Shown here piece by piece: positions 1,988 to 49,600 of a DNA stretch of 64,000 nucleotides (positions within the stretch are counted from its first letter, which is position 1; each line of letters opens with the position of its first letter). The stretch comes from Aplysia californica (Eukaryota): contig NW_004797932.1 in the NCBI RefSeq assembly GCF_000002075.1, positions 9,168 through 73,167 on the forward strand. The letters run 5' to 3'. The translations under genes and the position numbers were made by a program. The notes beneath the pieces were generated by a model. The model was not told where the DNA came from. It saw only the letters and a program-made list of their open reading frames with translations, and searched no databases.

Positions 1988-4900
1988 GTATTCAATCAGT
2001 GCAATGTTGTTTATGACATGTACACCTGTTATCTGTACACTCCATTTAGGAGCGAAATGTACATTTTGTCCGAATGTATTCAATATAAATAGAGAGAACA
2101 TCATTGTTAACTAAATTAAGACCAAGACGTGATTTGAAAAATAAACAAATCGAGCTCTCCCGGCTTACTTCTAGATTCAAGATCTAGAGAGTAGAGATTC
2201 TACGTCTACACAGTAGTACAGACTACAGTGTTCAAGTTCAGTGTTCAGTATCACAGTGTAGTGAGGTGACTGTGGAGTTTATAGCCTGTAGTGTAGAGTA
2301 TAATGTGTAGTGAAAGTCAAAGTGTCAAGTCTAACTAAACTGTTGCTCATGTAGGGTAAGATAGTGGCTATTCTCACCCGCCTGGAAGTTCTCGCAAGAT
2401 CAACTCCTCCCCTCTTCTCTCTCTCTCTCTGTCTTTTTCTGAATACTGTCTATCGGTGTGGACGATCAAATTGACCAAAACAAAGTTAAAAAATGATGTT
2501 AAAACACAAAAGTAAATTAATTTGGTTGTCTACAAAGATGCTACGGCTATTTAACTTTTCGAATCGAGCCGAACTACGCGGGTCGCCATTTTGTTTTGCC
2601 CGGAAATTCTCGCACTACTCCTCTCTCTCATTCTCTCTCTCTTTCCACTGCCCACAGACAAAATTGTACGCTTTTAGTAGGCTACAGTTGTAATGGAACG
2701 TTTGTTCACGGCACAGAATTCTACAATTTTTCTGTTATCACAGTGTAGAATTCTGTGGTTTAGGGTGAACGCAAAATTTGGTGAACGTGCACCGGGTGAG
2801 AATAGCCACAAGACTCGCCTGCACTATTCTCACTCCGGGTGAGAATAGAGGTGGCCAAGATAGTGACACCTAAAGTCGCTTTCGGCGATTGTTAAAATTT
2901 CTGAGTTTAATTCCGATTTGCATTTTTCATAGCCTCGGGCATGTTTCGCTTTGGTCCCTAACCCTAACCCTGACCCTGACCCTAACCTTAACCCTGACCC
3001 TAACCTTAACCCTGACCCTAACCCTAACTTTCTCCAGGTAAGAAGGGACCAAAGCGATGCCCGAGGCTATGAAAACGTAAATCGGAATTAAACGCGGGAA
3101 TCTTAACAATCACCTCGCTTTCATCAAGGTTGCGATAACCAAATAAAAGCAATTAGCGGCCCCAAAAGCGAAGAATTTTTCTTCTTTCTCTCCATCTTAC
3201 ACGAAGCACAAGGCCCATCACCGATTCCTAACACATTGTATTGTACCAAACGAGGGCCCTGGCATAGTGGGTTTTCCCCCTTCAGAGAGAAAGAGTTAAT
3301 GGTTAAGACAGTGAATGTTTGTCTAATAACTAAGCCTAAGAGTGAGCCTGGGTTAGTGACGGGTTTGACGTTTTACTGAAAAACCCTGAAAATACCGAAA
3401 ACCCTCGAAAATACTGAAAACTAATCACCTGTGCATACATAGACTGGTGAATTCAGGTATAGAGTTCAGGGGCGAGGCGATAGCTTATAACTGGCTAGAA
3501 GTCGAGAGATCCCTGTTGGGCTAGCTGCATTTCTCAATCATTTCTTGTTGTAGCAATGCCTTATCTCTGTGCAATTTGTAGCAGAAACTGTGGAAGCGAT
3601 TCCATAGAATGCTTTACCTGACTCAGCTGGATTCACCAATAAGTTTTTTTTATATATATGTGAGGCAGCGTGGTGAAATTTAAGCCGCTCGTAAAAATTT
3701 GTTTTTTTGCCTCAACACCTTTCATGTCAATATATATATATAAAAATACATTTCCATGTGAATTTTACTGAAAAACGCTGATTAATGGCACAAAACATGT
3801 AAATTTTCCGTTTTCAAAGACTCTATAGCTTTAGTTACCAAACTTTTTACCTGAGAAAACAGGTTACTCCCACCTTTTTTAATTGCAAATATATCGACTT
3901 CTATTCAAGATAGATGGGTATTTTTTTCTCCTCAGAGAAGAGCAAATAAACAAGCTTTAAGTTTATACCAATAAGTCCACATTTCCAAAAAATGACGGGC
4001 ACCCAATTCCACCACGTCATGACACGTATAATATCTGTGTGTTAATGGGGGGGGGGGGTTCTTTAAGTGATAGTGAGCCGAAACTCAATTTCTGGATTGT
4101 GACTTGCTTTTTGTGTGTTTTCTTTTGTTTTTGTCTTTTAAATGTCATTGTTTTGTGAAAATGTGAAGTTGTTGGATTTTGTTGTTGTTGTTGTTGTTGT
4201 TTATTATTTTCACAGAGTTCTTCAACACAAAGCTTTTATTTACATTTGTTTTTATACAGTCACATGAGGTGATCAATGCCTGATAGATGTATTCTTTCTA
4301 TTGGTTTTCGGGGGTTTTGTGGGGTTTTGGTTAAACTTCATACTGGTTAGTGACAACATGCTTGAGTGTCACTATTTTTTTTACTTTCTTCTCTACCCTT
4401 CTTACTTACTTTCACTTTGAAATATCATTTTTCTCTCACTTTCTTTATACTTTTATTATTTTACAGGGAGCTGATGAAAAAGGAGCTCGGAATACAATTT
4501 TATTCAGTGCAACGAAAAGAGAACTATTTGCCCTCAACAATGGCCTGAAGACCTTGAACAGAAAGCTGAAGTCATCATGGAAACTCGTCTCGTAAGGGAT
4601 AGCACATTTTTTTACTGTTACCATATCATCTTTTGAAATACTATTAGTGGAGCTTTTAAAAATTTAATGCAATTACTGTCAAAATTGTTTAAGACCGACG
4701 CCCATCGTCAAGGAGAAAAGTGGTGTCTCAGACAATTGGGCGTCTCGGATAGTCTTACTTTTAATAGAAAGAGACATAAAGGTGGATGTGGGAAACTGGT
4801 TTCAACAGGTGATCGTCTTTGATAGGTGGCTGTTAGAGCAGATTTCACTCTAGTTTCATTTTCTTCCGTCTTTAGTGTCCTTTAATGACTGCACTTGGCA

Positions 4901-7900
4901 GTGGCATGCTCAGCAAACTGTGTATTTCTTTTCACAATCTCTTGGGTTTTTTGTAAAGTGTTTTACGGCGCTCGCAACTGCATTAGGTCATATGAGGGCG
5001 CGGGACACACCTAATATTTTCAGTTGGTAGGAAATTTTGAATTTTGCCCGGATGGCGGCCGAAGCCTACTCTTATCGATTTTAGACCACCAAGGGATCTT
5101 TAACGTGCGCAACTTGCACACGGGCCCTCCGAGATTTTTCGCCCTTGTCCGAGAAGGCTAGGTGTAGATCTTTCCTACCAGAAGATCAGGGGTGTGGCAG
5201 AAAGACAGCAGTAAGGAGGAGCCAAGGAGTAAAGTAGAAAGGCTGCAGAAAGAGTCAGGAGCCCAGAGGAGGGGGCAAAGGAGGTGAGGGGGTGGGGGCA
5301 GAAAGTGAAAATGAAAGCAGACTACAGAACATTGCTTCACAATCTCTAAAGTGAGAGATGTATTGCTGGGGGTAGATGTATTTCAAGTGACTTGGATTTT
5401 AAAAAAGGGAGGAACCTTTTCTTGTAAATGATTTTGTAAATTTGGCTTTTGACTTTTCCTCCTAACCATCCTAACGTCACAACAGCTGATTAGATAAGCC
5501 ATAAGTTTTATTGTTCTAAAAATTTCGGTTTGTTTATCCTGTATTTTATATCCCAAGACAATTCAACTCCTTCACAAATGAATTCTGCTTTCTATTTACA
5601 CATTACTGTCTGAAAATGTATAGGTTTTGGCCCTTACTTGCTTGGTTTGCCTGTTCTCATGCATTTTGCAATAGAATGTTGTGAAATTATATAATCATCC
5701 CTGATACCACAGTCTATTTGTTAGTGACACTTGTAGGTTTAGTTAAAATACTCAAACTAATTTACTAATTGGAAATGAAAATGTTTTAGACTTCAAATGC
5801 CTTTGACATCCATAAACCATGATAATATGCATTCGAAGAAATTTTAATTCAAGTGCAACATTTGATGTTTTTCTGCATATGAAATCTTTTGGACAGAAAC
5901 AAAGAGGACATTTCTCCAGACAAACTGAACCAGACCCGCATCTTTGTCATACCTGGCGCCAGGGAAAAGTTCACAGCAGCTGAGGTAAGTTGAAGTGAGA
6001 GACGTGATCTCTTATACTTTATGTGTGGGAGCCTGCTGCAAGTAAATATGTATACCACTGGCTTGATAAAACTGATTGTTAAACCACACACTGTATTTTG
6101 ATGATTATCAAGTAGTGGAGCAATGTGTCGAATGATTTTGTAGGCAATGCTAAGGATTATTTCATGGATAGATATGATTGAAGATGAATTGATGAAAAAA
6201 AGAGGAAAGGTACAAAACTATTCATATTTTTTTTTAGCAAAATTTTGCTAAATTCTTGAGTGGACATCTAGATTTGTATTTTCTTTTGGGAAAGCTTTTG
6301 TAAAATTGGGTTTCAAAAAAGTGTTGCGGAAAGAATGTCACAATTCATTGTGCTGTCGAAGCATTCCTGGATGAATTATCATATACTAGTCTTTAAGAAT
6401 GATTACAGGGTGCATTGTTATAGAATGTCATATTGTGATGTTAATTAAATATTTTTCCTTGATTTTGTTGTTGTTTCAGTTTGCCACAATGAAGGCGTAT
6501 TTAGAATCAGGTGGCAGTATCATGGTGCTGTTAGGAGAGGGAGGAGAATCTCGCTTTGAAACAAATGTAAATTTTTTTCTGGAAGAGTTCGGAATCATGG
6601 TAAATAACGGTAAGTAAAACAAAAAAGTGCTGATTTCAGCTTCAACCTTCTTGATTCCAGAGGGAAATAGAAACCCAGAAATTCTATTTTCTTTCATGAT
6701 GTTTTTGACACATTCCCGTTCTGTCATTAGTTTATCTCAAATATTTCTTTGATAAGCTGAGCTATTTTTACAATGAAGATATTAGCCTTTAATGTAACTG
6801 TGTTGAAGAAATGGCTCTTGTGGTACTGAAGTGTTTTCCTTTTTAGGTTTGAATCCAGTTCAGGAAAGTTTCTAAACTAAAACCGTCAAGCAAGCTGCTT
6901 TTGTATTTTTGCTTTAATAAAAAAAAAACTTGACTGGCCTTTCATGGATCGTACCATGACATTGCAAGAAAGGCACAACATGCTCATCGTAAATGTTCAT
7001 GGAGTTCTTCCATACTTCATTCATTTGTTTCTTGTTCTCCCTTCAAACAGATGCTGTGGTCCGAACGTCTTACTACAAATACTTTCACCCGAAGGAGGCC
7101 TTGATAACAAATGGTGTATTGAACAGGTTAGTTTTTTACTATGCTCCTCTGCGTTGTTTTTGTTTTTTTTAATTGTGGGTTGCTTTTTCCACTCAAATGA
7201 GATTCATTTATGTTGTTCTTTAACCCTATCCTCACGCCCTGGGGTCATTTTGTACCCCCGGGGTTGTAGTCCTCACATATTAGAATACTTCTAGTACAAA
7301 TATATGTCTTTGAAACTTTCAGTTTTTCTCAAAAATCATTTTGACAGACTGCTATACGAAGCGTACGGATCGGATTAACGAGCAAATTTCCTCTTTGGAA
7401 AGTGGTGGCACAGAGTACCCCATGTCGTGTGGATACGATAGTATGACACGACGTACTGATAGGGTTAATAAATATTGTTACAGAGTATTCATGAGTGTGT
7501 TGTCTTCTTAACTTGAGATTTGAAGAAGAACAATTTGGGACTCAGCTAGTAGTGTGCAACTTTGGCAGTGTTGTTGTGATGGGGTGGTTATTGCTGGACG
7601 CTCAACAGAGAACTGAGAGGCGGCTAGAAGGTCTTCTGTTTGTGCGTAAGCCTGCTGTGATTTATATATAAAAAAAATGTTAGACAGCGTGGTGGAATCA
7701 GGCTCTCGTCAATTTTCGGGCATGTAAAGTTATTGGTATCATCTTAAAGCTTGTTCACTTGTCTTTATTTGGATGTAAAAAATATCCATTTATCTTGAAT
7801 ACAAGTTGAGATATTCGCGAATGAAGGAGATGGGGGTCACCTGTTTTCAGAGGTGAAGTTAGTGAGAAATGGCCGCCAAAGATTACTTGTTTCCTTAGCT

Positions 7901-25675: not shown

Positions 25676-28600
25676 CTGAAAGCACACACACACAGACAAA
25701 TAGCCGTCACTTCACACACTGACTGACACACAGCCGTCACTTCACACACACACAGACAAACAGCCGTCACCTCACACACGGACTGACACACAGCCGTCAC
25801 TTCACACACACACAGGCAAACAGCCGTCACTTCACACACTGACTGACACACAGCCATCACTTCACACAGACACAGACAAACAGCCATCACTTTACACACT
25901 GACTGACACACAGGAAAGTATATTATAAGACACTGTACACTGTACCTCATTTGTAGTGAAACTAAATTTTAGTTTTAGTAGAGGTTTTACGGCACTCGCA
26001 ACTGCATAACGACATATGAACGCCAGAAGATTAGAGGTGTTACAAGAGAGTAACAAACATAAAAAAAGAAGAAGGGGAGATAAGGACGATAGATGTTTCA
26101 TAGGAAAGAAGAAGCAAACCACACCAGAGCACCCGCCAACCCCCCATGCACTGTAGACTGTTCCTCATTTGTAGTGAATGGTTTATTTATTGTCATTCTT
26201 CTCTGAGACAGAAAACATGGCTCCGCTCACTGACAAATTTGTGTGTATTCTGATTTCACAAATGAAATTTTCAACCCCCTGTAACATTAAACTGGTTTAC
26301 TTATTGTTATTTTTCTCTCAGACAGGAAACATGGCCAACCCCACTGACACTAGGGCTGGATCCTGCTCGTCAAATTTGAGAGTGGCGATTCGCGATTCAG
26401 TCGGCTTCAATGAATCGCGAGTACGCGAGTGCTTGTGGAGCTGTGGCGGAACACTGAAACGGAACAGTGTCCTATCAACGCCTCTTGGCGAGCGCGAGTC
26501 CCACACTTGTTGTTCCGCCATCCTCTCCGCCCCACACCCTTTGTTGCGCTGCTCTATCAATTGACCTCAATTAGTGACCCCCATAAATTCCCCCCCCCCC
26601 CCCCAACCCCACCATTCGCTAAAACAATGGCTCCATAAAATTCCTTCTGTCTATTGGTTGGACCCCGTTCATTTTGTTTTAATAGGGGGGTTGGACTATA
26701 CCATCTTTTGTAAAATAAGGGGAGCCATACTAAGTGTTCCGTTCCGTTCTTGCGCTCGTGACTCGACTCAGCCGTAGGTTAAACAAGCCACAAGGTGGTG
26801 ACAGCGACAGGGGAGTGAATCGGGAATCGTTTGGCGATACTGTTCCGCATTCCGCTGAAGTGAATCGTGAATCGCGTTCCGCAGGAAAGAGTGGCGATTC
26901 AGTTCCGTTCTCGCGCCCGTGACCCAGCCCTAACTGACGCTACAAAGAGAAGCTGAAGGGGGCCGACAGAAGAGCTGAGAAGGACAGCCCAGTATATGAT
27001 AGATACCGGACTTCAAGTGCGATGCGATAGAGAAGAAGTAGTAGAAGACTTCAGACATGGGCATGGTTTCAAATCCATCACTAAGCTGGTGCTATCTACT
27101 TTACGGGCAGACAAGTAACACGTCCCAAACTTTGAGGGCTGAAAGTTAATGGTCTTACTCTGACAACACAAAGAGCATATTTTTAAAAATTACACTTCAC
27201 ACATTCAAAACCAGGGAAAAAATCATTTAAAAGTTATATTTCTTTCAGAGTAACTTAATTTCTCTTTTCATTTGCTTTACATTGGACTTCACAACTTCTA
27301 TAAAATTCCCCAAACTTTAGCCTTTCTAAACAAGGAAGAAACATGGACTTTTACAATGTAAATTGTGGAACAGTGTTTTATAAACAAGAGAAGAAATATA
27401 TACCTGCGAGTAATTCTACAATGGAAATTGTAAAATGACTACAAAATATGAAGAAATATGTACCTGCCCATAATTTTACAGTAGAAATTGTAGGACAACT
27501 CTTTATAAACAAAGAAAAAATATGAACCTGCGAGTAACTTTACAATCAAAATTGTACAATGCTTTATAAACAAAAAAGAAATTTGTACCTGTGCGTAATA
27601 TTACAATAGGAAGTCGTAGAACCACGCTTTATATACAAAAAAGAAATACGTACCTGCCAGTAATTTTACAGTGGCAATTGTAAAACGACACTTTATGAAC
27701 AAACAAAAAATATGTACATGTGTGTAATTTTACAAAAGGAAATCGTAGAACCACGCTTTATAAACAAAAAAGAAATACGTACCTCTGAGTAATTTTACAG
27801 TGGAAGTTGTAGAAAAGCGACTGTTTGTAAGCCAGCCAGTCCTCGATGACAAGCAGGTAGAGATTGGTCTGGGGCAGGGCCGTGACATAGTAGAAGCCCG
27901 ACATACACGGACCGGACACGTTGCCCGTGATCATCCCACTGCGACCTGGGAGCAAGACAGAGACGGGGGTTAGTCTTTAGTTTTGGTAATTGTTTTATGG
28001 CACTAGCAACACAATAAGGCCCATATATATGTGCCGAAGATTAGAGGTGTTACACGAGAGTAACAAACACAAAAAAGGAGGAGGAGAGATAGGAAAGAAA
28101 GAGCAGCAAACCACACCATAGCACCCGCCAACCACCCACTGGGGTCAGTCTTAGTGAATGGTGAGTCGCTGTGATCACTGAGACTTAATGTGTTTTAGTA
28201 AAAGAGTTTTAAGGCACTTGCAACAAAATAGTGTACATATATATACAAGCCGAAGATTAGAGGTGTCTCTGCACACAGAGATGACGTCAGCCTTAGTGAA
28301 TGGTGAGTCGCTGTGATTACAGAGACTTTAAGGGGGTTTTTTCAGTAAGAGTTTTACAGCACTTGCAACAAGATAAGGCCATACGTACGTGCCGAAGATT
28401 AGAGGTGTTACAAGAGGGCAACAAAAACAAAAAAGGAGGGGAGAAAAGGACAACAGATGTTTGATCGGAAAAAGGAGCAAACCACACCAGAGCATCTGCA
28501 AACCCCCAGCACAGAGACTTTTCACCAAAAATGGAATAGAACAACAACACTGAAGAGAAACAGGAGGAGCAGACCACCCGCCCAAATATAAATAATCAGA

Positions 28601-31600
28601 TTTTAATCCTTAATTTTACCAAAATACAATATCAACCACCTACAGAGAAAGAAACAGACCACGATCTTCCGCCTACGAACAGAACATCTACAGCTCAACT
28701 TTCACTTGAACAGAATAAAACCAGAACTTCCCCCAATGTGTCCTTTGTGTGACTATGCATGAGACAGTGGAACATCACCTGTTCCACTGTACAGCCCTAA
28801 ATGACATCAGAGCTACCCTTCTCCCTCCGAGACCTAACATTGACAACACACTCTACGGAACATTACAGCAACTGCAGCAAACCTGCACTTATCACTACAT
28901 GGCATTGGACAGAAGGGCAAGAGCCCAGATGTTGCTGGATCGATAACAACAACAACAACAACCAAAATACAAGACCAGATTCCTCCCCTTTTTCAGAAAT
29001 TCGTCCCTCTGGGACAAGAAGATATGTGAGGCATTGTGGAGAAGTCAGGTGCTCCTCAAAATTATGAAATCAAAGAAACGGGTATTTTTCTGCTCATTGG
29101 ACCATTTTTATCAATTTTCCTTTTTCCCGTCTCAATACCCTTCATGTCCATTTACAACCCTGTTTCAGAGTGGACTTTACTGAAAAACGTTGATGAAAGA
29201 CACACAAAAATATAAATTTGCACACTTAAAGTTAAAGTTTTCATCACCTGAGCTATATATAGATCTATATTTTAGTTCTGGATATTTGCACAATTTTACA
29301 GCTGAAAATATCCACAAACTGTGTCCTGTGGGTGGTTGGCGGAAGCTCTAGTGTAGTTTGCTTCTTCTTTCCTTTCAAACGTAGATCTATCATCCTTATC
29401 TCCCCTCCTTCTTTTTTATGTTTGTTACTCTCTTGTAACACCTCTTATCTTCTGGCGCTCATATGACCTTATGCAGTTGCGAGCGCCGTAAAACCTCTAC
29501 TAAAACATCCACAAACTGTGTCCTGCTACATACCCAAAGCCTCATCGTTGGCCCTGAAGCTGACCACGTCTTGAATGCAGCCAAAGTCACTGTGGAACTT
29601 GGGGATCGGCCCACGGTTTTTGTAGTAATCGTCCGTGTCTTCTGGTTTCTGGGGCTGGCCCTCCAGGGTTAACTGGAGAAATAAAAAGGACCAAAAAAAT
29701 TATTTTTTGTTTTTGTTATAGTAGAGGGTTTTGCGGCGCTCGCAACTGCATAAGGTCGTATGAGCGCCAAGGAGTGGGTGTCAACAGAGAAGTCTTTACA
29801 GGGAATCAGACTTAGACTGCTCACCTCTCTAGCTTCAACAGCACAAGGTCTCCTTCGACTATCAAGGCACCCCGGAAATAGCGGGTCACAAGAGAGTGAC
29901 AAACATACAAAAGAAGTGGAGGAAAATGACAATAGTAAGGATCAGGAAAGAAAAAGCAGCAGTTCCCTGTTGTAGATCAGGCACAGTTATGAGCATGACA
30001 TGAGTCAGCCCATTTAAAATTCTACTATGCTTGAACGAGAAATGTCCCCCCTTTGGGAATGGCCTAAAGACACAGTCAGTGGCACTACCCCAGGGGGGTG
30101 ACAAAAAAATAAAAAATAAATAAATTTAAAAAATAAAATAAAATAAACTGCCAAATGAGGTGACAAAGCATATGATATGATAGTACGAAACAAAACTGCA
30201 CCCATTTTTATACCTCTGGTTTGTTTAGTTTTAATTTTAGGAAGAATTTTACGGCACTTGCAACACAATAAGGTCATATAAGTGCCAAAGATTAGAGGCG
30301 TTACAAGAGAGTAATAAACATAAAAAAGAAGGAGGAGAGATAAGGACGATAGATGTTTGATAGGAAAGAAGAAGCAAACCCCACCAGAGCACCCACCAAC
30401 CACCCACAAAAAAAGAACCTGCCGAGTGAGATGACAAAGCATATGATAGTACAAATCAAAACTGCATCCATTTTAATACGTCTGGTTCGTTTAGTAAGAA
30501 TTAAAGTTTTAGTTTTAGTAAGAGTTTTACGGCACTCGCAACTGCATAAGGTCATATGAGCGCCAGAAGATTAGAGGTGTTACAAGAGAGTAACAAACAC
30601 AAAAAAGAAGGAGGGGAGATTAGGACGATAGATGTTTGATAGGAAAGAAGGAGCAAACCACTCCAGAGCACCCGTGGTTACCACCCACTAAGCGTAAAAG
30701 TATTCAGGCACTTGCAACAACATATGACAATACAAACAATAACTCAATCCATTTTTATACGTCTGGTTTGTTCAGTTTAAGTAAATGTTTTACGGCACTT
30801 GCGACACAAATAGCTCATATAAGCACCAAAGGCCAGAGTTGTTACGACTAGAGAGTAGAATACAAAGAAAACAATGGTGGAGAGAGAACGACAACAGACA
30901 TTTGATGGGAAAGAAAGCGCACACCACAACAGAGCCCCTTTCCAAATACCCACATCTTTAGTTTTGGTAAGTGTTTAACGGCACTTGCAGCACAGTAAGG
31001 TCATACAAGTGCCAAAGATTAGAGGTGTTACAAGAGAGTAACAAACATAAAAAAAGAAGGAGGAGAGATAGGACGATAGATGTTTGATAGGAAAGAAGAA
31101 GCAAACCACACCAGAGCACCCGCCAACCACCCACATACCCACATCTGGGTTGGGGAAAAAAAAAACAGAAAGAAGATACGAAATAACAGCACCATGTTGT
31201 AGAAGGTGGAAATCTTTACATGTCATTTAAAGAAGTCAGGACTTGATAGGACCTAGCACAAGCCACCAAAAAGAAATGCGTAACATCAATGCAAGTTTAG
31301 AATCAATGTATCTAACCTTGGGTTCTTTCGGAGAAATTCTACAAGATCCCTGAAAGTCGATGGACTCTTTCCTGGTGAAGAACTTGTGATGATAGACCAA
31401 ATGCTTCATGATTTCTCCCTCTTTCCGGCCTAGGGTGACACTCTGGTAGCGAGACTCGTCGAGAGCGTTGGCCACCAGGAAGTCCGGGTCCATCACCAGA
31501 AACGCTGCTGTGTCAAATAAGTAGCACCTGTCAGAGAGAGAGAGAGAGAGAGGGGAGTTTGAGTTTGAGTAAGAGTTTTACGGCACTTGCAACACAATAA

Positions 31601-34600
31601 GGTCGTATAAGTGCCGAAGTTTTAGTTTTAGTAGCAGTTTTACGGCGCTCGCAACTGCATAAGGTCATATGAGCGCCAGAAGATTAGAGGTGTTACAAGA
31701 GAGTAACTAACACAAAAAGAAGGAGGGGAGATAAAGACGATAGATGTTAGATAGGACAGAAGAGGCAAACCATACCAGAACACCCGCCACCCACCCACAG
31801 ATAGGAGTTTGAATTTGAGGACACAGACGCACATGGACTCAATCGGGGTTATTAAGAGTAAGAAAAAAAAGCAAGACAGACAGACAGATAGAGACAGGAG
31901 GGAGGGGGGGGGTGTTGGCTCTAGAAAATACAAGTCTGACAACGCTGTCAAGGCTATTAGGTTGAGAAATGTTTTTCCGGTTATAGTTTTAGTAAGAGTT
32001 TTACTGCACTTGCAACACAATTAGGTCTTATAAGTGCCAAAGATTTGAGGTGTTCAAGAGAGTAACGTGCACAAAAAAGGAGAGATAAGGACAATGCATG
32101 TTTGATAGGAAAGAAGGGAGCAAATCACAGCAAAGCACCTGCTAACCACCCAAAAAGTGTTTCACTTTCTTGAAGGGCCCAAAAGAAGTAAAAACAAAGA
32201 CAACAGTTAGAGTGAAACAGATGAAAAAGCAGCAGACACCAGATGTTATTATAGTCCAAGTTAAAGCGTGGGGTGAGAACACAATAAACCAACAGGAGAA
32301 ATATCTCAGCACTGTGGTATCAAAGAACAACCTTCCACACCTAGTCAAACATATTTCATGGCACTCTCTGAGTGGGCTGAGAACACATTATACAACAAGA
32401 CAAGTTTCAAACTAGTCATCATCATCATTGCCTTTCTCACCCTGCACCAGGGTACAGGCCACGGAAAAACACCTTCCACCTTTCTCTATCCTGGGCTAGC
32501 CTCTTGATGTTATTCCATGTCTTCCCACTTTTCTGTACATCGATTTCTGTGATTTAAACTAGTGCAATCATAAAAAGTGCCAGTGTGGAGAGGCGGACCA
32601 AACTGTGGAACACATCCTTCAGCACTGCAGGACACACTCCAGACAGTCATGCAGAAGTATTCATACTATCAGAAATAACCAACTGAGCTTCGACCCTCTT
32701 TTCAGTCAGAAATATCATTTTCTCTCATAGTTCCTCATTCAAATAGTGCTTGTATTGTTGGTAATAACAAGCTGAACTTTGGTGAAAAGGTCAAACTTCA
32801 ACAGAAAAAAACTCTTCTTTAACACTTTGCCATCACAAGGCTTACATAGTAAAAATCCTTGCCATCAGAGGCGAAGGCATTTTGGGGAAAATCCAAACAA
32901 ACTGGGAGGTAAACATCGCCGATCGGCGAGATGTTTTTTTAAGTTTTAGTAGAGGGTTTTACATAAGGTCATATGAACGCCAGAAGATTAGAGACGTTAC
33001 TAGAGAGTAACAAACATAAAAAAGAAGAAGGGGAGATAAGGACGATAGATGTTTGATAGGAAAGAAGAAGCAAGATGTGACGGCAAAGTGTTAAAGAGAA
33101 AACAAAACTGGAAAAAACCATCCCTTCCCCGCAGACCTTGTCTCACAGCCGGGCTCCCCGTTGGGACAAGTGTACACCTGACCACACGACTTTTTGTAGT
33201 CCGACGCCTGCATGCTCTCCAGGGACTTCTTCTGGAAATCGTCGTAGAGAATGTCCAGGCCCGTCACCGCCTCCACTCGCTCTGTGGCGCAGCGCCGGTG
33301 GTCAGAGTTCGGGCCCGGCCCTTTGCTCAGGTAGCACTTCTCTGGGGAAAAGTAAAAAGTATCAACGGCAACAGCCATTATCTTACTATACTTAGTTTAG
33401 TTTTAGTAGGGGTTTTACAGCGCTCGCAACTGCATATGGTCATATGAGCACCACAAGATTAGACGTGTTACAAAAGAGTAACAAACAAAAAAAAGAAGAA
33501 GGGGAGATAAGGACGATATATTGTTATATGTTTGATAGGAAAGAAGAAGCAAAAGCAGTAGCAGAAGCAAACCACACCAGAACATCCGCCAACCACCCAA
33601 TATCTTATCATACCTAGAGAAGAAACAGAATACTGTGCACATAACTGATAAGTGTGTTTAACACACTGCAATGCTGTATGTCTTGATTTAGTAAGAGTTT
33701 TACGATACTTGCAACACAATAAGGTTATATAAAAGCTGAAGATTAGAGGTGTTACAAGAGAGTAACAAACACAAAAAAGAAGGGAGGGGAGATAGAGACG
33801 ATAGATTTTTTTATAGGAAAGAAGGAGCAAACCACACCAGAGCACCCGCCAACCACCCACAGTAGAAGTAAAAATATCAACGGGAACTGCCATTATCTTA
33901 CTACACCCACAGCAGAAACAGAATACTGTGCAATATTGTTGTTGTTATCGATCCAGTAATACTGTGCACATAACAGATAAGTGTGTCTAACACACTGCAA
34001 TGCTGTACATCTTAATTTAGTAAGAGTTTTATGATACTTGCAACACAATAAGGTCATGTAAGTGCAAAAGGTTAGAGCTGTTACAAGTAGAGAGTAACAC
34101 ACACAAAAAAGCAGGAGGAGAGATAAAGACGACAGATATTTGATAGAAAAGAAGGAACAAACCATACCAGCACACCCGTCAACCCCCCCGCACGGTACTT
34201 CCAACATATTTTGACTCACCCTGTAAAGCAAGGTTACAACATTTAACTTTCTACAGCAACATCAAATTTATTAAAAACCCAAAAATAAGTTCCAACCACA
34301 AACATGAATTATTAATGACAAGTTCACATTCCATGTCAATGAAACCGTGAAGCATGACATCCCTAATCTCCCATTCACTCAAGCAGCCCCGTCAGTATAC
34401 AGCGCACTCGGAAAAAGTCCACCAGACACCATAATCCAGGTCACGTCAGATTTTATCTCTATAGCTTCAACTCTTTAAGACCCGATCCCGATCCCACTCA
34501 TCTGACTGACAGCACACACAGCTGTGTGCACCACGGCAGCAGACGTCTGTTTTGTTTAAGTAATGGTTTTACAGCACTTGCATCACAATAAGGTCATATA

Positions 34601-37600
34601 AGTGCCGAAGATTAGAGGTGTTACAAGAGAGTAGCAAAAAAAAAATAGAAGGAGGAGAGATAAGAACAATTGATGTTTGATAGGAAAGAAGGAGCAAACC
34701 ACACCAGAGCACCCGCCAACCACCCACAGAGACGTTTGTAACATCAGAGCTTAATGGTGTATCAATTTGGGGGGGGGGGGGGGGTTTCCCTACTGAAAGT
34801 GAAACAGATCGGAGCTGTTACTACTAACAAAGATAAGCCATTTCTATACTCAACAGTCTCGCTGTAACTACATGTAACGTCAAAGTGAGTAAATATTTTC
34901 GGCATTTCTTGGTCTTATCATTCTATCTTTTTTCTTTCCAGATATGAAACAGAAGTTGACAAATCATGGTTCACCATGTACCTCTCTGCACTTTTCTACC
35001 CCACCATATGTCTGTCTCACTACGGAGAGTCACTGACATGTCTTTTAGAAAAATACTGTTTGACGTCAAAAGACTGTTGAGCCCGTTCACTTTTACGAAA
35101 AGATCATAGATAAAACCATGAAATTTGTATCCAGTTTCACCACTGGCATCAAGAGAAATGATTTCAAGCTTTCTGAAAGCCACGTCAGGTCATGTTATAC
35201 CGTTCTCAGAACCCACAGCCTCGAAGAGACAGAGAACTAATGGGCTAAAAACAGTATCCAGAAAGACAAAAAAAACCCAAAAAATTAATAAATAATCTTC
35301 ATCACCATGATTACAAACAGCATGTCATTTTTACTACTACTCACTGATATAGCAGTCGTCATCGACATCGCACTTGCAGCCTCCCATGAAGTTCCCTCTG
35401 GTGAAGTTCATACACTCTTCATCAGTCTTGGGGGTCATCCCTTCGAAGACGGCTTGAGAAATCGTGTTGATCTTGCCCACCCCCGCCGAGTCCATGTAGG
35501 GCGTGGACACAGAGGTCTTGTGAGGGGCCGAGCTCGTACGTTTGTACCACGGACGCCTGAAGTACGCGGGAATCAAACAAGGCGGCTAATTAATACTTTG
35601 TATATATATGCTGTCAGTATATCAAACATGGTAACTAATTAATACTTTGTATATATATGCTGTCAGTATATCAAACATGGTAACTAATTAATACTTTGTA
35701 TATATATGCTGTCAGTATATCAAACATGGTAACTAATTAACATTTTGTGTATATATGCTGTCAGTATATCAAACATGGTAACTAATTAACATTTTGTGTA
35801 TATATGCTGTCAGTATATAAAACATGGTAACTAATTAACACTTTGTATACTCTGTTAGTAAATCAAACAAGGTAAGTAATTAACACTTTGTTTATACTAT
35901 TAGTAAATCAAACATGGTAACTAATTAACACTTTGTAAACGTTATTAGTAAACCAAACAAGGTAACTAATTAACACTTTGTATATGCTATTAGTAAATCA
36001 AACATGGTAACTAATTAACACTTTGTAAACGTTATTAGTAAACCAAACAAGGTAACTAATTAACACTTTGAATACGCTATTAGTAAATCAAACATGGTAA
36101 CTAATTAATTAACACTTTGAATACGCTATTAGTAAATCAAACAAGGTAACTAATTAACACTTTGTGTACACTGTTAGTATATCAAACAATGTAAATCATT
36201 AACACTTTGTATACTCTGTTAGTATATCAAACAATTTAACTCATTAACACTTTGTATACGCTATCAGTATATCAAACAATGTAACTCATTAACACTTTGT
36301 ATACGCTATCAGTATATCAAACAATGTAACTCATTAACACTGTATACGCTATCAGTATATCAAACAATGTAACTCATTAACACTGTATACGCTATCAGTA
36401 TATCAAACAATGTAACTCATTAACACTGTATACGTTATCAGTATATCAAACAATGTAACTCATTAACACTGTATACGCTATCAGTATGTCAGTATCATTT
36501 GTCCAGCACACTAGTTGATCTGATTACGATCATGAGAGTGAATCACTCGCACTATTGAAGCGAAACTTTTCAAGAGAAGCTGCGTGCACTTCTAAAGAAG
36601 TTAACAATTTTGAAAATGCCATTATGTCAATCTATACTGTCTAAAGAAGTTTACAATTTTGAAAATACCATTATTTCAATCTACGCTCACATTGAAAAGA
36701 AGTTTACAATTTTGAAAATGCTATTATTTCAAAATTATGGCTATCATATCTTTGATGAAAGTATCTTTTTCAAAAGACTTAAAATGTATCTTTATAAGAA
36801 AAAAGATGTACTTTGTTGGGTCGTAGCCTCTGGTAGATCTGTGGCCAGGGTAGGTGCGAAATACTCCGCTCCGAAGCCCCACATTTGTCCACTTGACTTG
36901 ATCAATGGACTCAAACTTTCTGTCTCTCCAGATTTTCTCGATGGGCTGCGTGATCAAAACATCAGCTCTGAAAGCACAAAAAGAGCAATGAAAAAAAGTG
37001 CATGTAACAATAGAGAACTGCAATCTACAATTTTAAAAAGTATAAGGTAAAGGGAAGATGTAGAAGCAAGCCCATCATCAAAAGAATAATCAGAAAATGT
37101 GCTTACAGCAAAATAAGGTTTCCCTACTGAAAGTGAAACAGATCGGAGCTGTTACTACTAACAAAGATAAGCCATTTCTATACTCAACAGTCTCGCTGTA
37201 ACTACATGTAACGTCAAAGTGAGTAAATATTTTCGGCATTTCTTGGTCTTATCATTCTATCTTTTTTCTTTCCAGATATGAAACAGAAGTTGACAAATCA
37301 TGGTTCACCATGTACCTCTCTGCACTTTTCTACCCCACCATATGTCTGTCTCACTACGGAGAGTCACTGACATGTCTTTTAGAAAAATACTGTTTGACGT
37401 CAAAAGACTGTTGAGCCCGTTCACTTTTACGAAAAGATCATAGATAAAACCATGAAATTTGTATCCAGTTTCACCACTGGCATCAAGAGAAATGATTTCA
37501 AGCTTTCTGAAAGCCACGTCAGGTCATGTTATACCGTTCTCAGAACCCACAGCCTCGAAGAGACAGAGAACTAATGGGCTAAAAACAGTATCCAGAAAGA

Positions 37601-40600
37601 CAAAAAAACCCCAAAAAATTAATAAATAATCTTCATCACCATGATTACAAACAGCATGTCATTTTTACTACTACTCACTGATATAGCAGTCGTCATCGAC
37701 ATCGCACTTGCAGCCTCCCATGAAGTTCCCTCTGGTGAAGTTCATACACTCTTCATCAGTCTTGGGGGTCATCCCTTCGAAGACGGCTTGAGAAATCGTG
37801 TTGATCTTGCCCACCCCCGCCGAGTCCATGTAGGGCGTGGACACAGAGGTCTTGTGAGGGGCCGAGCTCGTACGTTTGTACCACGGACGCCTGAAGTACG
37901 CGGGAATCAAACAAGGCGGCTAATTAATACTTTGTATATATATGCTGTCAGTATATCAAACATGGTAACTAATTAATACTTTGTATATATATGCTGTCAG
38001 TATATCAAACATGGTAACTAATTAATACTTTGTATATATATGCTGTCAGTATATCAAACATGGTAACTAATTAACATTTTGTGTATATATGCTGTCAGTA
38101 TATCAAACATGGTAACTAATTAACATTTTGTGTATATATGCTGTCAGTATATCAAACATGGTAACTAATTAACATTTTGTGTATATATGCTGTCAGTATA
38201 TAAAACATGGTAACTAATTAACACTTTGTATACTCTGTTAGTAAATCAAACAAGGTAAGTAATTAACACTTTGTTTATACTATTAGTAAATCAAACATGG
38301 TAACTAATTAACACTTTGTAAACGTTATTAGTAAACCAAACAAGGTAACTAATTAACACTTTGAATACGCTATTAGTAAATCAAACATGGTAACTAATTA
38401 ATTAACACTTTGAATACGCTATTAGTAAATCAAACAAGGTAACTAATTAACACTTTGTGTACACTGTTAGTATATCAAACAATGTAAATCATTAACACTT
38501 TGTATACTCTGTTAGTATATCAAACAATTTAACTCATTAACACTTTGTATACGCTATCAGTATATCAAACAATGTAACTCATTAACACTTTGTATACGCT
38601 ATCAGTATATCAAACAATGTAACTCATTAACACTGTATACGCTATCAGTATATCAAACAATGTAACTCATTAACACTGTATACGCTATCAGTATATCAAA
38701 CAATGTAACTCATTAACACTGTATACGTTATCAGTATATCAAACAATGTAACTCATTAACACTGTATACGCTATCAGTATGTCAGTATCATTTGTCCAGC
38801 ACACTAGTTGATCTGATTACGATCATGAGAGTGAATCACTCGCACTATTGAAGCGAAACTTTTCAAGAGAAGCTGCGTGCACTTCTAAAGAAGTTAACAA
38901 TTTTGAAAATGCCATTATGTCAATCTATACTGTCTAAAGAAGTTTACAATTTTGAAAATACCATTATTTCAATCTACGCTCACATTGTAAAGAAGTTTAC
39001 AATTTTGAAAATGCTATTATTTCAAAATTATGGCTATCATATCTTTGATGAAAGTATCTTTTTCAAAAGACTTAAAATGTATCTTTATAAGAAAAAAGAT
39101 GTACTTTGTTGGGTCGTAGCCTCTGGTAGATCTGTGGCCAGGGTAGGTGCGAAATACTCCGCTCCGAAGCCCCACATTTGTCCACTTGACTTGATCAATG
39201 GACTCAAACTTTCTGTCTCTCCAGATTTTCTCGATGGGCTGCGTGATCAAAACATCAGCTCTGAAAGCACAAAAAGAGCAATGAAAAAAAGTGCATGTAA
39301 CAATAGAGAACTGCAATCTACAATTTTAAAAAGTATAAGGTAAAGGGAAGATGTAGAAGCAAGCCCATCATCAAAAGAATAATCAGAAAATGTGCTTACA
39401 GCAAAATAAGTTGCAGTAGGAGAAGGGGGGGGGGAGGTAGAGGGAGGGGGGGGGAGGTAGAGGGGGGGGAGGTAGAAGGGGGGGGAGGAGGGGGCTGTTT
39501 GCCTGTGCTTGATGTATCATCAGCAGCCTAGAATGGAAAAGGAAAATGAGACGTCACATGAACAAATAAATACTGGCAAGTAAAAAAAGTTTCTCTCGCA
39601 AACCACCAAAATAAATTCTCTGCAATAAATTCACTCAGCCCACAACACTTCTGTCTTACCTAACGCCTTTGTTAAACTTCTGATCTCGACTTTCACATCC
39701 TTGGTCTTCGCTGTATCCGTTGATCCAAAAGTGAGCATCCAAGGTCTTCTCTTCCAAGCTGTCGTTGTACATATACTTGATGGGATCACAGTGGCTCTGA
39801 GGGGCTGCAGGAAAGAAAAAAAAAATCATACTTATTATACTTTAGAAAATGTACCCCCTTACTATTCCAAAAGAAAAGGTAATTAATATATGTGTCACGA
39901 CGTGGTGGAATCAGGCACTCGTCAATTTTTGGGCATGTCGAGTTATTGGTATTATCTTAAAGCGTGTTCACTTACCTTGCTTTCTATGGAAAAAAAAATT
40001 CCCATCTATCTTGAATAGAAGTTGAGATATTGGCAATTGAAGGAAGTGCGTGTAGCCTGGTTTCAGAGGTAAAATTAGCGAGAATATGGCCGCCAAAGTT
40101 TGGTAACTTCAATAGCTTGAGAGTCCTTGAAAATGGAAACTATCTATATTTTGTGCCATTAATGTTTTTCAGTAAAATTTACTCAGAAATGTGTTTCTAT
40201 ATGGACATAAAAGATGTAGAGCCAAAAAACACAAATTCGAAAAAAACTGCCAAACTTTAGGAAAAATGCATGTTTCTTTGATTTCATTAATTTGATGACG
40301 AGTGCCTGATTTCACCATGATGCCTCACGTATAATCAAATCATCAGATAGATGTCCTTTTGTAAGAGAGAGGCAGAGAACAAGGATGGACGAAGATCTTG
40401 TCAGTACGTTAGTGCTCTAGCATGTGTAATCCACAGCTTGCTCTGTATACTTCTTAGGAAGACGAGAACGTATCCAAGTCGTGTCCTTGGGTCAGCTGGG
40501 GGAATGATAATTGTAGGGCACATAGAGCATGCTGTAGAGCATGAATACATTTGCTATAAAAATGTTATTATTATTATTATTACTATTATTATTATTATCA

Positions 40601-43600: not shown

Positions 43601-46600
43601 CTGCACAGCCCTAAATGACATCAGAGCTACACTTCTCCCTCCGAGACCTAACATTGACAACACACTCTATGGAACATTACAGCAACTGCAGCAGACCTGC
43701 ACTTATCACTACATGGCATTGGACAGAAAGGCGAGAGCCCAGCTGTTGCTGGATCGATAACAACAACAACAACAATCGAGAACACATCCCAGTTTATAAC
43801 GGTGCGATGAGGTCAAATGACCCCAATAAAAAAGGACAACGGGTACCGGGCGGGGTGATTAATTACCTCCGGACAGCGGGAGCTGCGGTGCAACTAAAAG
43901 GCGCGATTTCAGCTGATTTCGTGCGCCGTGTATTACCCCGACAAACCTGACAGCATTTTGAAATAATCTCTGGGAAGCATACAGTGAATATCACATAGAT
44001 TTCACAAAGGGTAGTCAACCACAGTATTTTAGGTTTACTTTCGGGGGGCGGGGGGGGGGGGTAGTCTAGAGTTAGGTCAGGCTCGCTCCAGGAGTAACGA
44101 ACGGTTCGCTGGTACAACTTGCAAACGAACTGACGGGTAACAAAGGAACCAAACTGATGCTCCAGTCGAGATCTTTTTCCTGTGTGGAAAAGGTCACCTT
44201 CAGACTCAACTGTCAAGTACATTTCATTGGCATTGGTAACATTATTAGATCACAAAGACGTTTTGGCACTTACCCTGGTCTTTCCATCTCTTGCTTTGTT
44301 CAAAATTTTCATCCCCGTTTCCCCATGAAGCATTTCCTCTTCAATCTCAGAAAACTCACTCGGGTTGCCATCTTTGTCTTGCTCTAGCCCAGAGATGGGG
44401 ATGTAGATCGGATCTTCCAGCAACTGCACAAGTAAGAACAGAAAAGATAAGAAGATAACTCATAGTTCAAAGTGAAATTTCCAACTTCCGCTTAATTATT
44501 TGCTCTTTATCCTTTTAGAATGAACGAAAAGAAACAAAAAGCAAATACCAGCATGAGCGGTGATATGGTCAGTCTCTTCGCCATTTCTTTCAAATACTGT
44601 GAGCTCTATTCTGACATGAGCAGTCCATCTCATTGAGAACATCTTTCCATCTGTTAGGACGCTGTATCCTCCCAGGGCTGGGATAGCCCTTACAAGCACA
44701 TATGAGAAGCCACCCACCCCCTAAATGACCTGAATTGTTTCGATACGAGTGTAAAACATAACAACAATTTACAAAAATAGTAAAACAACATTAATGTCAC
44801 TGGCACTCTCATCAAATTTAGAGCTACTGTGAACATATTTTAGAAAGACAATACCCTGAAGAAAACCACGTGGAATATAACTTTGAGCACTGCTACACAT
44901 TTTTTAAAAAGCAACAAATTTACTCAAATTAAAACTGCGTATGCCGATTCCATACAATCCCTAAAAAAAAAGAAGTAACGGACTCAGTAACAGACATCAT
45001 ACCGTTGTGCTTGGCTTCAGCTTCGGGTGGAAAATCACGTCTGCATTGGAATTGATCAAGAAGGAATAAACTGACCCCCACTGATGCTTGGTGAGAAAGT
45101 TTTCAATTTCGTCCAAGGTTGCATCGATGCCAACCACACCAATGTATCTGAAAAGACAAAAAATAAAAAGAAGAAACAAAATGTAGAGACCAGTAGGCTA
45201 TAGGGTGCTATGTCCTCAAATTCCCTACTCTCCAGTCTAGTAACTGGGCAAAGTGCTCACTATGAAATATCACTGTGACAAACCTGGAAGGAAAACCACT
45301 ACTTGTGTACTGGTGTGCCTTCAACTTCATTTAATAATTTAATAATTGCATTTATATAGCGCATATCCACGCTCAAGAGCATGCTCTATGCGCTTTACAA
45401 CCATTATTACCCCAGCAGACCCTCTGAAACCAGGGTCATCCGTTTGAAACCCCTCCCCCACAACAAATCGAGATTAAGAACACTTCACTACTGACCGAAA
45501 CCAGGGTCATCTGCACCACACCCAAAATGAAACTAAATAAGCTAGTGGTGAGCTCTCATTTGCATAACTTCATCAAAGCAGGAAAAGGATCTGCTCAGCA
45601 GGTGCTCTGGTGTGGTTTGCTCCTTTTTCCCTCTCAAACATCTATCATCCTTTTCTCTCCTCCTTCTTTCTTGTGTTTGCTACTCTCTTGCAACACCTCT
45701 AATCTTCGGCACTTGTATGACCTTACTGTGTTGCAAGTGCCGTAAAACTCTTACTCAAACTAAAACTCCTCTCTCTCTCTCTCACAGGTGCTACTTGTTT
45801 GACACAGCAGCGTTTCTAGTGAAACGATTACTTACTAAAACGTACTAAAGCAAGACACACAGCGTTTCTAGTGAAACGATTACTTACTAAAACGTACTAA
45901 AGCAAGACACACAGCGTTTCTAGAGAAACAATTACTTACTAAAACGTACTAAAGCAAGACACACAGCGTTTCTAGAGAAACAATTACTTACTAAAACGTA
46001 CTAAAGCAAGACACACAGCGTTTCTAGAGAAACAATTACTTACTAAAACATACTAAAGCAAGACACACAGCGTTTCTAGAGAAACAATTACTTACTAAAA
46101 CGTACTAAAGCAAGACACACAGCGTTTCTAGTGTAATGATATGGGACATAATCCATAATCCACCACAGTTGCTTGTCCATTATATTATCAGTTGTTTCCC
46201 TTTCATTGTAAACACTCCATGAGCAGTTCTCACATTATCTTGAGATTCAGGGCTTCTGGGAACGTAGGGTCTGGGGTGTATATAAAGCTGTGTCTGTGTC
46301 TCTAGTGTTTTTTTCGGTCATTTGACTGGTGAAGTGAACCTTGCACCACTAGTGAAACAATTACTTACTAAAACATACTAAAAGCAAAGCACAAGTCGAG
46401 CAACCACTCACTTGCCAGTTTTGGCACTGGTCACAGGGACAGCGTGGGTGATCATCAGACCCAGCCCCCATGAGTCCAGGTACGGCGCGGTCCACAGCGC
46501 GTTCTCCGTGGCGGCGATGGCCGACAGGAACTCGAAGTAGTTGTACATCTGCGTGATGAGGTTCTCCCCCGTCAGAAGCTTCAGCATGCTGCCGTTGTGG

Positions 46601-49600
46601 TCACAGGCCAGGGTACCGGGGAACATCTCCGCGTCCTCCACAATGAGGTAGCTGAAGATCCTTGCCTGTCCAACAATGAATTCTACTGCTACACTTCTCA
46701 TAGGAACATATCAACATAAACAAAAATGGGCCAAAGTAAAGTGTGACCCCCTCACATGTTTTTGCACATCACAACAATCAACGATCACAACGCACTGTTT
46801 CACATTACTGAAAGAGGTGATTACAATCCCGCAGTAGGTCAAGTAAATCAGGGGTGGGGAGCGGAGGGGGGGTACTTAATTTTTACCCAAAAAAACAAAT
46901 ATCTATGCCTTTTGCAATGAGAAACTTGATGAATTGATAGAACTTCCCATGTGAGTATTTACTAAAAGAACAAAAATCTACAAACTTTACAATGACAGCA
47001 ATGAGGTACTAGAATAATAAGGCTCGAGAAACAGGGAGAATAAATGCATTCAAAACGTCACAAACAGACAACACAATCTCCTTAGCCTCCCACTCAAAAG
47101 TTGACATCAAAGCCCTTTTAAAAACATTACAATAACTTCTGAAAACCTCCATCTTTTTCATCTTTTTCAACATGGCACTGGGTCAAAAGCACACTCTCAA
47201 AGCCTACTAGATAACAACAATAACAAAAATATTAGAAGCCCTTCAAAGTAAAAAAAAAAACAACAACAAGAGGATGTTGCTTTTTCGAAACCTAAAAAGC
47301 AAAACAACCCCCCCCCCCCAAAAAAAAAAAAAAAACGGAGAAAAAAAACAAACAACCAAATGAAAAACCAAAGAACATAAAAAGAAAAAGACAGACTTAC
47401 ATTTGGAGCGAGATACTTGTTCTTTTCCATCGGCACGTTGTACACAGATGTAAAGTTGTACTTGCAGATGGGCCCAGGAACGTACCCACTCCTTGTGTAG
47501 TACCCTGGAGCGGGATCAGAACAGGACAGCAGTAGGGTCATTGTCATGACTATAAAACACCTCTTTGGGCAAGCATACGAAGATTCCAAATTCAGCCATT
47601 ATTAGACAGTAGGGTCATTGTCAGGGCTATAAACACCTCTTTGGGCAAGCATACGAAGATTCCAAATTTAGTCATTATTAGGCAGACTCACATCTGCATC
47701 AACATTGCATCCATAATAATAGATAGCATTTGTATAGCGCAAATCCCCGCTCAACAGCAAGCTCCATGCGCTTAACAATCTATACTATTACACCAGCAGA
47801 CCTGAGAGCATTCTGAAACCTCATCTTCCTGGGAAGCATACAGTGCAAGCAGCCATTTATAGGCGCTAAATCACTACAATACTGACAAGATCTTTCGCTG
47901 TCTATGGCCGAGTACCCATTCCCACCTGGGGGAAGAGAGGAAAATTCATTTAAAGTGCCTTCCCCAAGGACATGTCGGGCCCGCGGCTCGAACCCCCAAA
48001 ACGCAACCTCACGATTACGAATCCGGTAGCCTAACCACTAGGCCACCGACACCACGTTTCAGCACAATTTCATCAAGAGATAAGAAAATGAAGAATTCAA
48101 CACACCTGGTCCACACCTGACATCCTCCCCGTCGGTATCTTTCCCGTCTGTGGCAAACACAATGATGGACTGGCAGCCAGTGCGAGGTGCTCTCCTCAGT
48201 AGGTCAAAGGCTAGGTCGTAGCCTTTTCTGGGAAAAAGAGAATGAACACATAACATTACCTTGCTTTAATCCTTGTAAGAAAAGATTTCATAATCCAAGA
48301 ATCCCAGAGGTGGGTGGTTGGCAGGTGCTCTGGTGTGGTTTGCTTCTTCTTTCCTATCAAACATCTGTCGTCCTTATCTCCCCATCCTTCTATTTTATGT
48401 TTGTTACTCTCTAGTAACACCTCTAATCTTCGGCACTTATATGACCTTATTGTGTTGCAAGTGCCATAAAACACTTCCTAAAACAAAACTAAAAGAATTC
48501 CAGAGCATTCTGTATGATGCACTCCAGTGTGCAGGATAAAGTAATCTCACACTAGCTAATAGATGCCAGTGAGCAAAAAAGTTTATAGTCATAGGATATA
48601 TGGCAAGTGGGTATATATGGCAAGTGGGTACCAACAGAGATTTTTTTAAATTCTTATGATCTAATCAATTAACTGTAATGTTTTAGTAATACAATCTTTC
48701 CCCCAACACTTAGGTAATATAACTTCAAAATCTAACCATTATGAAACATGACATGGCTTATTTGCTTCAAGGGTTCAACTTCTTAATAGAGAAACAAATA
48801 CAAAAAATACAACCAAAAAAAGCTACCTTTTAAGTCAGTTACACATAAACAAATTGTTTCTAATCCCTATTAATCTTGTCCTCATCTTCTTTCACCAACA
48901 ACATAAGCAGAATAATAAATACAAAAATACAAAATATACTTTTTCAATCCTCATCCATTTGAAATAAAGCAGGTAACAAAAAAACACCAGGAATTTCTTT
49001 TCAAAGGGAAAATTGCAATGCAAAGGCCATCAGTGTAAAAGAGAAAAGAGAACCAAAACACTTAAGAATTCGACAAATTTAGCAGGATCTACTCACTCCA
49101 GTTCCGTTGTTCCCCCAGCTACCAATTTTTCAATTTTCTCTATCAAGTCCTTTCTGTGAGCATTTGTAGCTTTCACCATTCTCTCCTCCTGGCAACTCAA
49201 AACTCTTGTGTCGTAGTAGTGCCACCTGAAGAGAGAGAAATCAACGAGTTCATCAATACGCTCTGGTTTAAAAGAGTCACATCAGACCCACAGTCTCATT
49301 CCTTTGACACTAGTTCATCAATACGCTCTGGTTTAAAAGAGTCACATCAGACCCACAGTCTCATTCCTTTGACACTAGTTCATCAATACGCTCTGGTTTA
49401 AAAGAGTCACATCAGACCCACAGTCTCATTCCTTTGACACTAGTTCATCAATACGCTCTGGTTTAAAAGAGTCACATCAGACCCACAGTCTCATTCCTTT
49501 GACACTAGTTCATCAATACGCTCTGGTTTAAAAAGAGTCACATCAGACCCACAGTCTCATTTCTTGGATTCCCTACTCCCATGTGTTCAAAGAAAAACTT

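Follow-up and report, generated by a model that had tools for sequence, protein, structure and literature searches.

Intron 10 of a gene of Aplysia californica, a sea hare, holds, in antisense, the start of that gene's own exon 19 together with the splice acceptor in front of it. How did this copy arise, and does it act on the splice site to which it is complementary? We addressed both questions computationally in a 64,000-nucleotide stretch of DNA (NCBI RefSeq assembly GCF_000002075.1, contig NW_004797932.1, positions 9,168 to 73,167 of the forward strand), here called the window. We judge it fairly probable that about 60–110 bp of the exon-19 acceptor region were joined, inverted, to a resident SINE by a one-off DNA template switch, with a product that is probably neutral.

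Host gene and exon 19

Mapping a 1162-aa sea-hare protein onto the window placed the 22 coding exons of the host gene on the minus strand. Exon 19 encodes 70 residues identical to part of this protein, which is named voltage-dependent calcium channel alpha-2/delta subunit in the sources. Among relatives with solved structures, the matches included alpha2delta-1 chains (best E = 7e-42) and CACHD1 (E = 1e-26), and by sequence the host gene is alpha2delta/CACHD1-like. Exon 19 was kept at full length in 25 of 25 protein matches, which extend from molluscs to lancelet and echinoderms. The features discussed below are collected in Table 1.

Two further observations concern the window itself. Segments 34783-37117 and 37117-39410 form a tandem duplication in which exons 16-17 are identical and, once a 45-bp minisatellite is set aside, 1395 bp show only 2 differences. 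The probable cause is tandem assembly of two haplotypes, or else a very recent duplication; if the duplication is real, 'exon 19' becomes the 21st exon. An interstitial, telomere-like (CCCTAA)n tract lies at 2956-3028.

Table 1. Coordinates of the host-gene exons, the donor region and the components of intron 10 (positions in the window)
Feature	Position	Strand	Basis
Exon 19 (211 nt), alpha2delta/CACHD1-like gene	31317-31527	-	protein mapping
Donor: tail-only type-A S1 piece, polypyrimidine tract, acceptor AG, exon 19 start	31493..31622	-	
Full type-B S1 directly upstream of donor tail; absent from copy	31620..31800	-	alignment
Exon 11	45003-45147	-	protein mapping
Intron 10 (1264 bp), holds inverted copy	45148-46411	-	protein mapping
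S1 body, type A, without ~11 nt at 5' end; resident copy	45598..45703	+	diagnostic sites, alignment
S1 tail + (CT)n + CAG, inverted from intron 18 end	45704..45787	+	alignment, shared alleles
Exon-19 first 35 nt (CYLFDTAAFLV), antisense to gene	45788..45822	+	alignment; X3 94-nt contig
Minisatellite, 52 bp x 6.3, spans exon-piece/flank junction	45801..46131	+	TRF, 98% matches
Solo LTR (TG...CA), inserted at (T)CTAG of last array unit	46132..46348	+	copy ends, relatives
Original right flank, intron 10 near exon-10 donor	46349..46393	+	array identity, CTAG pair
Exon 10	46412-46665	-	protein mapping

A unique inverted copy of the exon-19 acceptor

An earlier note on this DNA, made from the letters alone, had described 45704-45822 as the reverse complement of the exon-19 acceptor region, and both a self-comparison of the window and a pairwise alignment of the two loci bear this out. 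In the self-blastn, 31493-31622 matched 45822-45701 on the minus strand with 87.7% identity over 130 columns (E = 6.7e-41), and the alignment resolved the copy into an S1 tail, a shorter (CT)n tract, CAG (45785-45787) and nucleotides 1-35 of exon 19. Its location in intron 10, antisense to the gene, agrees with the 22-exon mapping. For the 39-nt non-repeat stretch, which has at most two mismatches, the rough probability of a chance match in 128 kb is 5e-14. When 45740-45830 was searched against the animal's own genome, four places were found, and the exon part was covered by the donor and the copy only. No comparable antisense copies of other exons were found in the window.

From 45727 onward, the captured tract differs from the donor by two substitutions and 8 nt of indels. 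The earlier note had counted two synonymous mismatches in the exon part, of which one stands: TTA/TTG at 45797 is a true substitution and the only one there. The other, CTG/CTA, is explained by the microhomology CT(A/G)GTGA at the exit junction, where exon 19 reads CTGGTGA and the flank CTAGTGA (6 of 7 nt identical, 45816-45822); position 45818, the A of CTA, agrees with the right flank at 46349.

The SINE body and the captured tail have different sources

S1 is a repeat of ~185 bp with a fixed 5' end and 28 matches in the window. TSDs of at least 8 nt flank 73 of 213 near-full copies, compared to 3 of 213 in a permuted control, and this excess, together with the fixed 5' end, identifies S1 as a SINE-like retroposon. 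Its 60-bp tail is common to two other repeat families, which account for 47 and 24 of 98 tail-only matches (examples at 29710-29769 and 4960-4999); one of these families carries a motif that may resemble the Nin/DeuSINE core. A search of Rfam with 45100-46450 gave no match. The combination of S1 with (CT)n was considered as a subfamily and rejected, being present in only 4 of 363 tails, two of them the donor and the copy.

Several properties of the family were recorded alongside. Within the gene (25474-57650), S1 copies in gene-sense orientation outnumber the others 19 to 6, and at 28144-28507, 30229-31134 and 33396-34188 copies and their flanks have been multiplied by short local tandem duplications. 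S1 sequence (45598-45767) is abundant, on both strands, in the polyA reads of RNA run X24. Genome-wide, S1 is likely a substrate for dsRNA formation and editing.

Alleles along the intron-10 element divide it into two parts. Its body is type A at both informative diagnostic sites (36C, 72T), whereas the donor's full S1 is type B. In a 73-copy alignment, the donor's full S1 ranked 36 of 70 by identity of its 5' body and had zero derived alleles in common with the copy; for the 3' part, the donor's tail piece was the joint best match (61 of 66 positions). A C at 45756 is common to the donor tail and the copy and has 98 matches in the genome compared to 6071 for the consensus, both counts taking in the other families that bear the same tail. 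The tail together with the CT pattern matched the genome at the donor and the copy only. One tail site, 45762, conflicts with a donor origin, as the copy has the S1 consensus A and the donor a C. This split of alleles between body and tail makes the element a chimera, in which a resident SINE gave the body and the donor gave the rest; to judge from the diagnostic alleles, the switch point would fall somewhere in 45704-45756. Accordingly, 45598-45703, which had been included in the donor-derived copy, does not belong to it: the SINE body was not copied from the donor.

The donor is itself composite: at 31556-31800, a full type-B S1 is fused to a type-A tail, apparently within one TSD. Of the 98 tail-only pieces, just one follows another S1 tail immediately.

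A minisatellite and a solo LTR at the right junction

Beyond the exon piece, two features had gone unnoticed in the original description of the locus: the 52-bp array and the solo LTR. The non-exon half of the array matches 46349-46393 with 89-91% identity. Between the two lies a 217-bp dispersed element (46132-46348; 43 matches among 40 scored candidates). We read 14 of its relatives, of which five have 5-bp TSDs, three lie behind a polypurine tract and six run into a shared internal sequence, mostly starting TGG. These properties of the relatives identify 46132-46348 as a solo LTR, from a family with at least 40 close copies. CTAG stands on both sides of it in intron 10, and its removal joins the array to 46349, so that the sequence from 46349 onward is the original flank. 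An initial interpretation of the flank half of the array as derived from a third, distant template was superseded by the solo-LTR reading, and inverted 7-9-mers inside intron 10, which are not collinear, were taken as chance. On the most likely reading, intron 10 records a SINE insertion, the capture of an exon start, the birth of a minisatellite at the junction and the landing of an LTR.

Presence in other genotypes

The window comes from a gappy assembly (1816 N in the window) with a probable haplotype duplication nearby, and the earlier note had named mis-assembly of the copy as a reason to doubt it. We looked for the structure in three samples from one study (X1-X3), which are labelled 'RNA?', two of them 'probably DNA', and which cover introns; they differ at SNPs from the window and from each other. 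A 94-nt contig from X3 bridges the junction between exon piece and flank, with 47 and 40 nt on either side. Array contigs were present in X1 and X3 at ~3x single-copy depth, X2 had depth across the array, and the right junction of the LTR was bridged in all three samples at single-copy depth. Over the 5' junction of S1, an X2 contig reached 27 nt on one side, where 31 were needed. Because pieces of the copy are present in three other genotypes, it is not a mis-assembly; bridging contigs in independent samples with distinct SNPs refute an artefact for the junctions, and an artefact for the locus as a whole is extremely improbable. No allele without the capture was seen among the contigs listed for the three genotypes, and the structure looks common or fixed, as estimated from at most six haplotypes.

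Origin of the inverted copy

The template of the captured tract is nearby, inverted and unique: it lies 14 kb off in a 927-Mb genome, and zero dispersed siblings were found. Both junctions carry homology, with 35 identical nt of S1 tail from 45727 at the entry and the 6 of 7 nt described above at the exit. No TSD was found around the insert, its left flank ending CTGCTCA and its right flank starting CTAGTGA; this counts for little, because a TSD of at least 8 nt survives in just 73 of the 213 near-full S1 copies. Nor is the exon piece followed by polyA or a simple-repeat tail; it abuts the flank directly.

We surveyed 363 S1 tails in 1.46 Mb of sequence (1.15 Mb non-N, window included) and retained 13 pairs with a low-copy shared 3' flank out of 53 flank-sharing pairs, those with repetitive flanks being dropped; by design, distant transductions are undetectable in this survey. 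In 12 of the 13 pairs the members are duplicates in the same orientation, no more than 3.5 kb apart; the sole inverted pair is the donor and the copy. With one inverted case among 363 tails, capture events are uncommon here. Across the same 1.46 Mb, local inverted two-copy segments gave 10 matches at 5-64 kb, six of them in one large inverted duplication. The latter lies downstream of the window (G000:C662, ~140700-202400), where the six inverted matches are collinear and 85-93% identical. Within the window, the inverted pair 26718-26932/49682-49905 was rejected as a local capture, being a young dispersed repeat with 96-99% identity to many copies.

From this anatomy we infer the following order of events and the likely pathway. 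Within the tail of the intron-10 S1, a 3' end that had broken or stalled would have annealed to an S1 tail in opposite orientation 14 kb off, namely the one that ends intron 18. Synthesis would then have copied the CT tract, the acceptor AG and some 30 nt from exon 19, after which the strand could have rejoined its own flank via the 7-bp microhomology. Either an MMBIR/FoSTeS-like process or a one-sided ectopic conversion closed by end joining may have been responsible. Later, the new junction would have been amplified in tandem, and a solo LTR would have landed in the array. A review cites template switches in E. coli that span 7-32 kb and use 4-15 bp of microhomology (PMC4888836).

Two routes through RNA would give a similar arrangement. 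In one, reverse transcriptase would be primed in cis on the gene's unspliced pre-mRNA at the exon-19 microhomology, copy back across the CT tract and S1 tail, and then switch to a type-A S1 RNA. The plus strand of the insert does read as unspliced pre-mRNA, the primer would form 7 pairs, one of them a G-T wobble, the TSDs mark S1 as a true retroposon, which is also abundant in polyA reads, and RNA-derived patches with microhomology and without TSDs have been described (PMC5110952). Such an RNA-templated chimera, which would resemble a class 2 templated insertion, implies that the S1 body and the exon piece are equal in age. The body stands 8.6% from the type-A consensus, near the old-copy median of 10.9%, compared to ~3% for the captured tract, which argues against equal age, but the contrast is not significant (9 of 105 versus 2 of 72 differences, Fisher P = 0.20). 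The route would also require two rare steps and a landing inside the source gene, and we consider it unlikely.

The other route, classical 3' transduction, in which the donor S1 was read through into exon 19 and the RNA was retroposed, had been offered in the earlier note side by side with a DNA template switch. It would account for the order S1-CT-AG-exon on one strand and for the inclusion of unspliced intron sequence. However, the donor consists of a full type-B S1 plus a second tail, whereas the copy is a single type-A element, and this subfamily mismatch of the SINE bodies largely refutes it; the missing TSD, the missing tail after the exon piece, the failure to find a dispersed sibling and a landing 14 kb from the source also count against it. 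A classical transduction is therefore highly improbable, and of the two origins first proposed it is the DNA template switch that fits.

Potential effects on splicing

The earlier note had further suggested that the copy forms a duplex over the exon-19 3' splice site, and this is thermodynamically possible: pairing of the unique 54-nt arm (45769-45822) with the exon-19 acceptor was predicted at -98.7 kcal/mol at 37 C (-129 at 15 C), compared to -17 to -45 kcal/mol for the 20 other acceptors. Skipping of the 211-nt exon would shift the frame, as had been proposed, with a predicted ...GCETS-stop two codons on. The predicted stop lies 136 nt before the next junction and would remove the last ~238 residues, so that skipping, if true, would lead to NMD or to a soluble alpha2delta.

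Could the copy then work as a built-in splice-switching antisense element, causing exon-19 skipping, exon 11-18 circles or editing? The strength of the predicted duplex and the presence of the copy in three genotypes are consistent with such a role, as is the prediction that the unique arm remains available even if other copies take up the S1 body, and one study reports that ADAR in the sea hare acts mainly on repeats (PMC9989829). Against this, the partners are 14 kb apart with eight exons between them, seven gene-sense S1 copies transcribed in between can pair with the S1 body but leave the unique arm unpaired, the short intron 10 may be spliced out beforehand, and the complementarity of the copy has been lost at several sites. 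In human, the mean distance within edited Alu pairs is 682 bp, rising to 1993 bp for pairs in different introns (PMC2533698), and a study of skipping by inverted Alus examined flanks of 500-5000 bp (PMC13019027). We regard a splice-regulatory role as improbable.

The predicted duplex spans three recodable adenosines. None of the 42 recoding sites in a sea-hare list (PMC9989829, sheet S5-1) is annotated to this gene or placed at residues 926-930; the list comes from whole juveniles, leaves out synonymous and intronic sites and does not give the coverage of this gene. RNA run X24, inspected over 44900-46800, had zero depth on exons 10-11 and is uninformative on splicing. A narrow literature search returned no report of an exon copied in inverse orientation that affects a splice site, and among the Aplysia circular-RNA matches listed, judged by title and start of abstract, none concerned the locus. 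Given the short intron 10, the competing S1 copies, the accumulated changes, including the minisatellite and the LTR, and the lack of a listed recoding site, the copy is most likely neutral and debris-like. It is a speculative prospect, to which we attach little probability, that in neurons its arm tunes alpha2delta dosage in cis through skipping followed by NMD, or gives rise to a soluble subunit without anchor or to a circle of exons 11-18.

Comparison with known systems

The locus is most likely a well-resolved fossil of repeat-mediated template switching, and it illustrates how a gene can, in a single step, gain near-perfect antisense against one of its splice sites. An active arm would amount to a naturally occurring equivalent of splice-switching oligonucleotides, situated in the gene for a calcium-channel subunit in an animal that is a major model for neurobiology. 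In 3' transduction by LINEs or SINEs, an element and its downstream flank appear at a second site; here, in contrast, the body is unlike the donor's, TSD and tail are lacking, and the copy is local and single.

As a retroposon, S1 resembles the modular SINEs with shared LINE-derived tails described from molluscs (PMC4758252) in its fixed 5' end, TSDs, short tandem-repeat tail and shared tail. The capture itself is similar to the FoSTeS/MMBIR insertions covered in the review cited above (PMC4888836), which also use a local template in either orientation, a short stretch of synthesis and a return through microhomology. It differs in that entry was via 30-60 bp of SINE homology with a product of ~100 bp, and in being an old germline event since altered by the growth of a minisatellite and the arrival of an LTR. 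Class 2 templated sequence insertion polymorphisms, as characterized in PMC5110952, likewise show junction microhomology without TSD or polyA, but they come from distant sources and are attributed to RNA patches, whereas the copy here came from nearby and is fused to a resident SINE, with pieces of it present in three of three samples of one study. Finally, the inverted Alus implicated in skipping and back-splicing (PMC2533698, PMC13019027) share with this locus an inverted SINE pair in one pre-mRNA and the possibility of a long dsRNA; here the partners are 14 kb apart, the pairing is a prediction only, and the complementarity reaches over the acceptor into the exon itself.
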